Counted from the first letter of the stretch, positions 55,521-57,289 are shown. The stretch: 58,523 nt of DNA from an uncultured Bdellovibrionales bacterium (GCA_965366815.1 CBDUGV010000004.1:1-58523), one strand, 5' to 3'. Translations and numbers: made by a program. Notes: generated by a model from the sequence alone, not told the origin.

Positions 55521-55795
55521 ATGCGCTGAGATCGGGAAGGTCAGTCACTACACTCGGTTAGCCGTTTGCGAGCTGTGGCGTTCTGCCTCAGTTGTAGTAG
55601 TACGCAGCAGCCAGAAGCCGTAGGAAACTGGGCCTCTGGCCGATCGAGGACGAGGGAAGGCTTGCGCTCCTCTTAAAGCTGATTTTTTCTGCAATATTTC
55701 CAGCTACTTAACAGTTGAGAATCTTGCATCGAAAACCTTCCAGCGAGTCTCTAAATCCTTGTATACACTTATTATTAGAAGAAGCGCTCCGGGCA

Positions 55796-57289
55796 ATGAA
55801 TTCTACGGCATTCTTTAATTCACTCATGCGAACATTTGGCGCTGCGGATCCGACAAGCCGCGACCCGATCATGTTAATCCTTCTATTATTGAGTTTTCTT
55901 GCCCTCTACGCAGGAGTCACGGCCATTAGTATGGTTCGCAAGCGAAACGAATCTCAAGACATACGAGACCTTCGGCTACGCTTACAAGAAATCTCACTGC
56001 TGGTCGAAGATCTCAATGGCAGAATCGCCAATGGGAAAGCTCGTATTGACAAACGCACCCTGTATCTCGAGGAGAAAATTAAACTACTCGAAGCGATTGA
56101 ATCCCAAGTGCGACACCTGAGCAAGAATTCCCAAAAGGCACTCGATAAAGCGACAAGCTACCTAGAAGATCGCGTGTACGAGATTGAACGCTCGGTTGAA
56201 GACATCAGTCGTAGCAAAGGGCCTTCGATGAATTTCGAAGACGACGCCGATGAAACGATTGAGGTTCAGGAAGAAGTCGAGCCAATGGTCTTTGCACTAG
56301 AAGAATCTGACACTGACGATGACGGACGAATTAGTCTCTTAACCGCACTCGGTGGCTCTCGAAACCTCTTTACCATGAAGTTCAAGCAACTCTTGGAACA
56401 GCAAGGTGATCTTGGCGACAAGATGTTCTACGCTGGCCTGCAAGACCTCCTCTTTAACAGCGGTCTTGGAGCATCTGCATCGGCGACTTTGCTGGAGAAA
56501 ATAAAGCTCGCAACCAACGATAGTCCGAGCGGCGCGAGTGGGGAGCTTATTCGCACAGCGATTGAAAAAGGCATTACCAAAATAGCGTCTTTTGAAGAGC
56601 AAGAAGATATCACTGCTGAAAAAGTCTCGGGCCTGCCAAAGGTAATCGTCGTAGTCGGAGCCCAAGGGGCCGGTAAGACGACGGTCGTTGCTCGGCTTGG
56701 TCGCTATTTTCAGAAGCAAGGAGGAAAGGTCCTATTGTGTTCCTCATCCAGCGCACGGTTTGACGAGGAAGTAGCCCTGAACGAACTTGCTACACGCTTC
56801 AACGTCGATATTCACAACGAACCCGCCAGCGTAAAACCCAAATCCGTCGCCTACAAGGCCTTACACCGGGCTCAAGACGAAGGATACGATCTTTTACTCG
56901 TAGATACGGTAGCACTCGATGAAAAAGGTAAGCGCATCGCAGAAGTAGAATCAGTGCTCACCATGCTCTCTCGAGAGCAACCGAATGCGCCGCATCAAGT
57001 CTTACTCGCAGTAGAAACTGCTACCGGCGAAGATGTTATCAAGCAGCGCATGCAACTCGAGGATAGAATACATCTTACTGGTAGTTGTATTACGAAACTA
57101 GATACAAGTAAGCGCGCTGGGAAACTGGTTGGTATTCACTGCGCACTCAACTTGCCAATTCGATTTGTAAGCTTCGGAACAGGTGCGGCGAGTTTGGAGC
57201 CGTTCTCAGCAGCGGAGTTCAGCTACGCGTTGTTCTATGACGCGGGAATGGAATTCTCGACAGACGGCTGGGAAGGCGCGTCCGCTTAA
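55796..57289 (+). CDS. Membrane-anchored FtsY-like SRP-GTPase paralogue with degenerate G motifs
   Basis: TM, coiled coil, acidic linker, N domain, GAQGAGKTT, TKLD, FVSFGTG. DTFRAAA and DTAGR are not conserved. Start uncertain (ORF track 55715). Confidence 0.75.
   Translation: MNSTAFFNSLMRTFGAADPTSRDPIMLILLLLSFLALYAGVTAISMVRKRNESQDIRDLRLRLQEISLLVEDLNGRIANGKARIDKRTLYLEEKIKLLEAIESQVRHLSKNSQKALDKATSYLEDRVYEIERSVEDISRSKGPSMNFEDDADETIEVQEEVEPMVFALEESDTDDDGRISLLTALGGSRNLFTMKFKQLLEQQGDLGDKMFYAGLQDLLFNSGLGASASATLLEKIKLATNDSPSGASGELIRTAIEKGITKIASFEEQEDITAEKVSGLPKVIVVVGAQGAGKTTVVARLGRYFQKQGGKVLLCSSSSARFDEEVALNELATRFNVDIHNEPASVKPKSVAYKALHRAQDEGYDLLLVDTVALDEKGKRIAEVESVLTMLSREQPNAPHQVLLAVETATGEDVIKQRMQLEDRIHLTGSCITKLDTSKRAGKLVGIHCALNLPIRFVSFGTGAASLEPFSAAEFSYALFYDAGMEFSTDGWEGASA

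Follow-up and report, generated by a model that had tools for sequence, protein, structure and literature searches.

A membrane-anchored FtsY paralogue, probably a pseudo-GTPase, encoded next to a two-MotB stator triad in an uncultured Bdellovibrionales bacterium

Bacterial GTPases of the signal recognition particle (SRP) type are known in three lineages, Ffh, FtsY and FlhF. TipF of Caulobacter, a scaffold for early flagellar assembly and placement, joins a membrane anchor and a coiled coil to a non-catalytic EAL domain. FlhF is an example of the SRP fold passing from protein targeting into flagellar biology; in P. aeruginosa this SRP-type GTPase modulates flagellar rotation and binds FliG as well as FimV (PMC6855561). 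Stator units can have their own dedicated helper, as is the case for FlgX of Campylobacter (PMC6686046). Here we describe psY, a gene in a stretch of 58,523 nucleotides (the window) from an uncultured Bdellovibrionales bacterium (GCA_965366815.1, CBDUGV010000004.1:1-58523), which encodes an FtsY-derived, degenerate paralogue of the SRP-type GTPases and lies beside genes for a flagellar-type stator. The name psY is given here to the whole family, of which 17 members were seen. Full-text literature searches returned no description of an FtsY paralogue, an FtsY-derived pseudo-GTPase or an FtsY-like protein linked to MotA/MotB.

Compared with FtsY (TIGR00064; PDB 2og2, 2q9a and 1fts), psY has the same fold of N and G domains (NG) with the insertion-box, FtsY as its best hidden Markov model match, a nested position in the phylogeny, and the transmembrane (TM) anchor, helical region and sequence blocks of its lineage. 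It differs from FtsY by the loss of the G2 Asp and Gln, the G3 Gly-Arg and the G5 Glu, to which other members add the P-loop lysine and G4, and by its link to stator genes, which canonical ftsY does not have. FlhF (TIGR03499) likewise belongs to the NG proteins of the SRP family and is connected with the flagellar apparatus, but the FlhF of this phylum keeps G1-G4 and has no TM helix, while psY groups with FtsY. With TipF, psY shares a design principle, namely an anchor, a coiled coil and an enzyme-derived domain without catalysis; the two folds (EAL and SRP GTPase) are not homologous, and psY is genetically tied to stators. FlgX and FliL are dedicated, lineage-specific proteins serving stator units, a service that psY would share, but neither has a sequence or fold relationship to psY, and the functional domain of FliL is periplasmic whereas the bulk of psY is predicted to be cytoplasmic.

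In this study, comparison of sequences and predicted structures gave descent from FtsY, loss of the catalytic motifs, purifying selection, a conserved architecture, and strict co-occurrence and synteny with a MotA/MotB2/MotB1 triad. We propose, at somewhat better than an even chance, that psY is a catalytically dead, membrane-tethered scaffold derived from FtsY which works with the MotA/MotB2/MotB1 stator. As such it would represent a fourth, inactive SRP-GTPase lineage, and a second, independent and much younger recruitment of the SRP fold, made from FtsY itself with the parent still beside it in the same genomes. It would be a clean natural case of a targeting GTPase turning into a structural pseudo-enzyme.

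The psY gene and the decay of its G motifs

The psY gene was located at 55796..57289 on the plus strand and encodes 497 amino acids (aa) from an ATG. The initial annotation, made from the window alone, had given an open frame at 55715-57289 (+); this frame is present, and every motif quoted for it was found. The TTG at 55715 with which it opens probably lies 27 codons upstream of the true start, since 55796 is the start used by the database gene call (P0002, 497 aa) and by every orthologue, and the N-terminal M-x-S-T-A-x-F peptide conserved across psY orthologues begins at this ATG. The Pfam SRP54 GTPase model (PF00448) matched psY with 128.7 bits (cut-off 22.7) over model positions 1-195 of 196, corresponding to aa 308-507 of the long, TTG-started form. 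Among the NCBIfam models the best score was obtained with FtsY TIGR00064 (152.8 bits), followed by Ffh (114.3 bits) and FlhF TIGR03499 (29.3 bits), and psY stays under both the FtsY equivalog cut-off of 260.7 bits and the FlhF cut-off of 174 bits.

The G domain (56639..57235, +) keeps the insertion-box sub-domain, as found by alignment, AF2 modelling and Foldseek. In the alignment with canonical FtsYs, G1 (GAQGAGKTT, 56657-56683, +) and G4 (TKLD, 57092-57103, +) are intact, and together with the N domain seen in the AF2 model they bear out what the initial annotation listed as retained. The other three motifs are degenerate: SSSSARFDE stands in place of DTFRAAA at G2 (56741-56767, +), DTVALD in place of DTAGR at G3 (56903-56920, +), and FGTGAAS, which reads GTGA, in place of GxGE at G5 (57173-57193, +). 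The aligned G2 and G3 of the window copy read SSSSARFDEEVA and DTVAL, respectively. The replacement of DTAGR was described correctly before, while that of DTFRAAA needs a correction: the D, T and F of DTFR and a downstream Q are replaced, but the arginine is retained on alignment (R321, invariant in the four close orthologues). Likewise, the letters of the closing GTG, previously taken as retained, are present in a G5 that is degenerate.

Relatives of psY are few. A word-indexed search of 5.8 billion proteins gave only three close orthologues (42-43% identity), and seven further, more divergent clusters sharing the full-length architecture came from a HMMER search of 1.84 billion cluster representatives, where the top 150 matches also contained 139 ordinary FtsYs. 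The FRA core of G2 is kept in 138 of these 139 canonical FtsY-type matches (as DTFRA or DTYRA), one reads DTCRA, and the G3 of this set reads DTAGR, DTSGR or DSAGR. All 124 genomes of the window's GTDB phylum (Bdellovibrionota-like) were surveyed by profile search, and psY was rare, with nine carriers spread over four GTDB families and a few metagenome clusters besides. Six genomes, including that of the window (G000), scored 495-690 bits, and more divergent members were found in G066, G067 and G059; within the window's own GTDB family, G029 and G030 are without psY. Seven members (P0035, P0042, P0065, P0120, P0152, P0163 and P0004) come from metagenomes only, and the context data given below are those of the genome carriers. 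A metagenome scan returned only an ordinary FtsY locus (L007).

The motif decay goes further in the family than in the window copy. G2 and G3 are kept in none of the 17 members, the P-loop is degenerate in nine of them (such as GSPGAGTTS in G028, GNDCKQKVA in G024, GMNGANRIE in P0152 and GATGAERLE in G059), its lysine is lost in G028, P0152 and G059, and G4 is lost in about half. By alignment, every G motif is lost in one member or another. What is conserved instead are the N-terminal peptide, the charged positions of the long helix and the first helix of the N domain. Since the P-loop is degenerate in nine members, nucleotide binding does not appear to be a requirement of the psY family, although the window copy, with G1 and G4 kept, may still bind guanine nucleotide. 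With the G2 (Asp, Gln), G3 Gly-Arg and G5 loops missing throughout the family and the P-loop lysine missing in some members, a GTP-dependent heterodimer of the Ffh:FtsY type is unlikely for psY, and its loss is predicted. We conclude that psY is probably a pseudo-GTPase, in which the fold is kept, the catalytic motifs are lost family-wide and catalysis is predicted to be lost as well; the earlier suspicion of a possibly inactive paralogue probably applies to the whole family, whose G motifs have decayed.

Descent of psY from the FtsY of its order

A PF00448 search of the window's own assembly (G000; 416 contigs, 90% complete) gave three real SRP-type GTPases, namely psY, a canonical Ffh on contig C80 and a canonical TM-anchored FtsY on contig C107 (L002:985-2217) with GVNGVGKTT, DTFRAAA, DTAGR and TKLDG. 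Separate canonical FtsY and Ffh proteins are encoded in all nine psY carriers, and a canonical FtsY in every one of the 124 phylum genomes. Since canonical FtsY and Ffh coexist with it in the same genome, psY is, judged from gene content, not the working SRP receptor. The initial annotation had considered it an unlikely receptor and advised a look for a canonical ftsY elsewhere; with the FtsY on C107 and the Ffh on C80 this opinion was well placed, and psY is not the only ftsY of its genome. Its position as a fourth SRP-family paralogue has to be amended for G000, where neither the PF00448 nor the FlhF profile search matched an FlhF and psY is therefore the third, but it is right for G028, G066 and G067, which carry a short FlhF.

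In a careful maximum likelihood (ML) tree of the NG domain, the 15 psY rows formed one clade (support 93/90), which had an SH-aLRT value of 95 in a quick tree and was recovered in 94% of bootstrap trees. The clade is nested inside the FtsY clade of the window's own order (97/91), and the short FlhF-like proteins of the phylum are split from psY and FtsY at 100/100. The SRP-GTPase phylogeny proposed earlier as a check thus places psY with the FtsYs of its own order and apart from the FlhF-like proteins, and psY is, by this tree, a lineage-specific duplicate of the order's membrane-anchored FtsY. The psY branches reach 2-6 times the length seen in canonical FtsY, and for this reason the exact placement of psY within the order is unsure. 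In G066 and G067, psY is present and the canonical FtsY belongs to a different subclade, which implies an old duplication with many losses, or transfer.

The N-terminal part tells the same descent. The canonical FtsYs of G008, G010, G011, G018 and G004/G005 possess a TM helix and a helical N-terminal region of ~200 aa, which in these proteins replaces the usual acidic A domain of FtsY and aligns with psY from the first residues, and the blocks AYKAxHxAQDE and REQPxAPH are common to psY and the canonical FtsYs of the same order. Since these FtsYs already have both elements, the anchor and coiled coil of psY are inherited and not invented.

Direct descent from FtsY, with the FtsY anchor and the first N-domain helix (L185, R189) kept, would also suit a specialised or regulatory part of the SRP pathway, which docks to SecYEG/YidC, lipids or Ffh through that helix and the NG surface, and either directs or gates the insertion of membrane proteins (such as MotA and the MotBs) or brakes the canonical receptor competitively. 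The G000 copy retains G1 and G4, as such a part might, and the adjacent stator genes do encode inner-membrane proteins. We consider this role unlikely for a family in which no member has kept the loops forming the composite active site and the dimer interface, some members have lost the P-loop lysine as well, and every carrier retains the canonical FtsY.

In a species-pair comparison, synonymous change (pS) was saturated at ~0.8, while nonsynonymous change (pN) was 0.14-0.16 in the NG domain and 0.08-0.13 in the N-terminal part. The nonsynonymous change of psY is ~2.5-3 times that of the neighbouring motA, and members as little as 24% identical still share the psY length and architecture. A decaying, functionless duplicate of ftsY would account for the lost catalytic motifs, for branches 2-6 times the canonical length and for this excess over motA. 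It is hardly credible, however, that such a relic would keep a full-length frame and the whole architecture in at least 17 members, a pN far below the saturated pS, a strongly conserved N-terminal peptide and helix, and a synteny conserved over four GTDB families. On these values psY is under purifying selection and not decaying.

Architecture and predicted topology of psY

The AF2 model of psY, built on a 95-row alignment, was confident, with a mean predicted local distance difference test (pLDDT) of 87.3 and a predicted TM-score (pTM) of 0.67. The protein begins with a conserved peptide of 23 aa (55796..55864, +), predicted to be periplasmic (N-out), in which 12 positions are invariant in the four close orthologues and the model places a short helix at aa 3-13. 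It is followed by a single TM helix at aa 24-50 (55865..55945, +), seen in both the AF2 model and the hydropathy profile, and then by an R/K-rich stretch. Two long cytoplasmic helices of coiled-coil-like character occupy aa 55-118 and 123-139 (55958..56212, +; AF2 model and alignment); here D72, R76, E99, R126 and E131 are conserved family-wide, and the RIDKRTLYLEEKIK block of this long helical region is invariant among the close orthologues. An acidic, disordered linker with 15 D/E per 38 residues and pLDDT <50 covers aa 143-180 (56222..56335, +). The N domain, modelled as a four-helix bundle, lies at aa 181-264 (56336..56587, +), and its first helix keeps L185 and R189, which are common to all FtsYs aligned. 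The G domain was modelled at aa 282-480, with the beta-alpha-beta-alpha insertion (insertion-box sub-domain) present at aa 312-370. A Foldseek search against the PDB gave FtsY and Ffh NG structures as all top matches (2og2, E 1e-20, target TM-score 0.88). The TM anchor and coiled-coil region described in the initial annotation are thus confirmed by hydropathy and AF2, with the addition that they also occur in the canonical FtsYs of the order and are not new to psY. An ESM Atlas search with the N-terminal 185 aa of psY gave only sub-threshold matches at 0.75.

The counts of Lys and Arg flanking the TM helix, read by the positive-inside rule, place the N-terminus of psY outside and its bulk in the cytoplasm, and the same pattern was obtained for all psY members and for the TM-anchored canonical FtsYs of the order. 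A periplasmic NG domain, as in a TolA/TonB-like topology, was rejected because the charge pattern matches that of these canonical FtsYs, whose NG domain is necessarily cytoplasmic.

The MotA/MotB2/MotB1 triad beside psY

The motB genes that converge on psY had not been connected with it before, and they are its conserved partner. The first, motB1 (57296..57940, -), encodes a MotB-type protein with a plug, an OmpA-like domain and the conserved TM aspartate, and is convergent with psY. The second, motB2 (57943..58523, -), encodes another MotB-type protein with a serine in place of the TM aspartate, and runs off the window, so that its 5' end and motA lie on contig C46. The end of C46 (L046:2025-2109) overlaps the end of the window (58439-58523, contig C4) by ~85 bp with one mismatch; read on its plus strand, C46 continues as the reverse complement of C4, so that motA and motB2 become joined, and the part on C46 comprises the beginning of motB2 and an intact motA. 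The TM aspartate, otherwise universally conserved, is kept in MotB1 (TFSD motif) and is a serine in MotB2 (SFTS) in every copy seen. From this pairing of sequences a heteromeric MotA5-MotB1-MotB2 stator is predicted, in which a single Asp would carry the protons; a triad with two MotBs is in itself unusual.

The convergent motA-motB2-motB1 operon abuts psY in G000, G032, G023, G024 and G066, and is one gene away in G028 and three genes away in G067. Genes without a Pfam match lie between motB1 and psY in the latter two genomes (276 aa in G028, L040 8605-9435, -; 700 aa in G067, L041 5702-7804, +). In G031 and G059 the triad stands at contig ends in a manner consistent with adjacency to psY. 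Orthologues of MotB2 (>=140 bits) were found in exactly the nine psY genomes out of 124, with additional copies only in G018, G023 and G024; G029 and G030, of the window's own family, have neither psY nor MotB2. These additional copies sit inside flagellar operons, and in the G018 and G023 loci, which were read, the operon has the standard order motA-motB2-motB1-fliL-fliM-fliN-fliO/P/Q/R, with fliL directly after motB1. A stator link of canonical ftsY was also considered and rejected, motA/motB being present in none of the 24 canonical FtsY loci fetched. From the flagellar-operon copies and these canonical loci without motA/motB, it follows that the triad is a flagellar stator type of the order and that psY is tied to one copy of it. 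The exclusive link of psY to a triad with an Asp-less MotB speaks for a stator variant not described before, which has a cytoplasmic accessory of its own.

A mechanism may be outlined for the stator-associated scaffold that we favour. A duplicate of the membrane-anchored FtsY would have given up SRP-receptor chemistry and become a scaffold. Sitting N-out/C-in in the inner membrane, psY would hold its folded NG domain beneath the membrane by means of the long helix and the acidic flexible linker. There it could bind or organise stator units, or their cytoplasmic partner, at the inner face of the membrane, for recruitment, retention or regulation. The scaffold or landmark role suggested in the initial annotation is reasonable in this light, as an interpretation of the same features.

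Several observations weigh against this proposal. Both the physical contact of psY with MotA, MotB1 and MotB2 and its effect on the stator are what we infer from the data above. The psY and triad genes are transcribed towards each other and not as one unit. In G018, and likewise as part of the flagellar operons of G023 and G024, the triad functions without psY, which is consequently not an obligatory stator subunit. A MotA tree of psY-linked and flagellar-operon triads did not decide by its topology whether the psY-linked ones are separate paralogues. G000 shows no flagellar structural genes and fits a purely flagellar role poorly. Finally, all carriers are fragmented metagenome-assembled genomes of related organisms and hence non-independent observations.

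The flagellar status of G000 bears on further explanations. FliG is encoded in 106 of the 124 phylum genomes, including all psY carriers except G000, and all five other genomes of the GTDB family of G000 have it. Profiles for Flagellin_N, FliG_C, Flg_bb_rod and FlhF gave no matches in G000 (90% complete), and tblastn with FliL, FliM, FliN and FliR of G023 gave none either. The only MotA_ExbB-family genes of G000 are TolQ (beside TolR and a TolA-like gene), one ExbB-like gene and the MotA of the triad, which is 69% identical to the flagellar-operon MotA of G023; the other psY carriers have additional MotA genes. This suggests that G000 lost the flagellum and kept psY and the triad, a reading which needs care at 90% completeness. 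Since G000 keeps the intact four-gene module without flagellar genes or another MotA-type stator, psY and MotA/MotB2/MotB1 could form a self-contained, flagellum-independent, proton-driven 5:2 motor, in which psY is the cytoplasmic partner or output of the MotA ring and replaces FliG. We regard such a motor as decidedly improbable; in G000 the module might serve the adjacent machine resembling a type III secretion system (T3SS) or another envelope process. If it is true that the module works without a flagellum, this would be a new output for the 5:2 motor family.

An FlhF-like polar landmark, which marks where flagella or another envelope machine are placed, or how many there are, without acting on stators, would also be a second independent recruitment from the SRP family. 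FlhF is a precedent in the same superfamily, and a TM helix and coiled coil with an inactive enzyme-like domain are typical of polar landmarks such as TipF and TipN of Caulobacter. The presence of FliG in every carrier but G000, and the many flagellated phylum genomes without a detectable FlhF, could be fitted to this role. On the other hand, psY tracks the MotB2-type triad and not flagella (FliG 106/124, psY 9/124), G000 has psY and no flagellar genes, and in G028, G066 and G067 psY coexists with a short but genuine FlhF whose G1-G4 are intact. A landmark of this kind is therefore unlikely. The short, motif-intact FlhF-like proteins (306-340 aa) occur in G028, G030, G066, G067 and others; a long B domain is missing from them, and with 100-133 bits they fall short of the 174 bits set as cut-off for TIGR03499. 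Of the 124 genomes, 34 were matched by the FlhF model at E <= 1e-25, some of them through FtsY only, and short FlhF-like proteins were found in ~24 of the 34. Because FlhF-like proteins and psY coexist in some relatives, psY is not simply an FlhF replacement. In G030, G112, G114 and G072 the G3 of the FlhF-like proteins reads DTAGA or DTAGC in place of DTAGR.

On its other side, psY of G000 is divergent from a gene for a FliA/WhiG-like sigma factor (54795..55520, -), which is context and not part of the module and which is the first gene of a block that also encodes SctJ, a FliN-like protein and SctV. The initial annotation had noted this divergent T3SS sigma gene, and the arrangement is correct for G000. 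From it one could read psY as a T3SS-associated factor, co-regulated with the sigma-28-like gene and acting as landmark or scaffold for the adjacent needle-type or needle-less T3SS module; G000 is apparently without a flagellum, and no type III system other than the T3SS-like machine was seen in it. This is very unlikely, because the adjacency is unique to G000 and is not a conserved link: the genes upstream of psY are unrelated in G032, G031, G028, G023, G024, G066 and G067, being a sodium:solute symporter (G032, G031, G028), a DAHP synthase, a CTP synthase (G066, G067) or unknown. Neither do the psY genes share a sigma-28-type promoter, as a search upstream of psY and motA in 8-9 genomes gave scattered partial matches and nothing conserved.

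At the psY/motB1 junction no terminator-like hairpin was found, and a scan for sigma-70 promoters and terminators around psY stayed at chance level. The stop codons of the two genes are 6 nt apart in G000 (57289/57296) and G023 (L039 4806/4813) and 20 nt apart in G024, and overlap by 6 nt in G032 (L005 2149-2154). Convergent transcription across this junction is possible.

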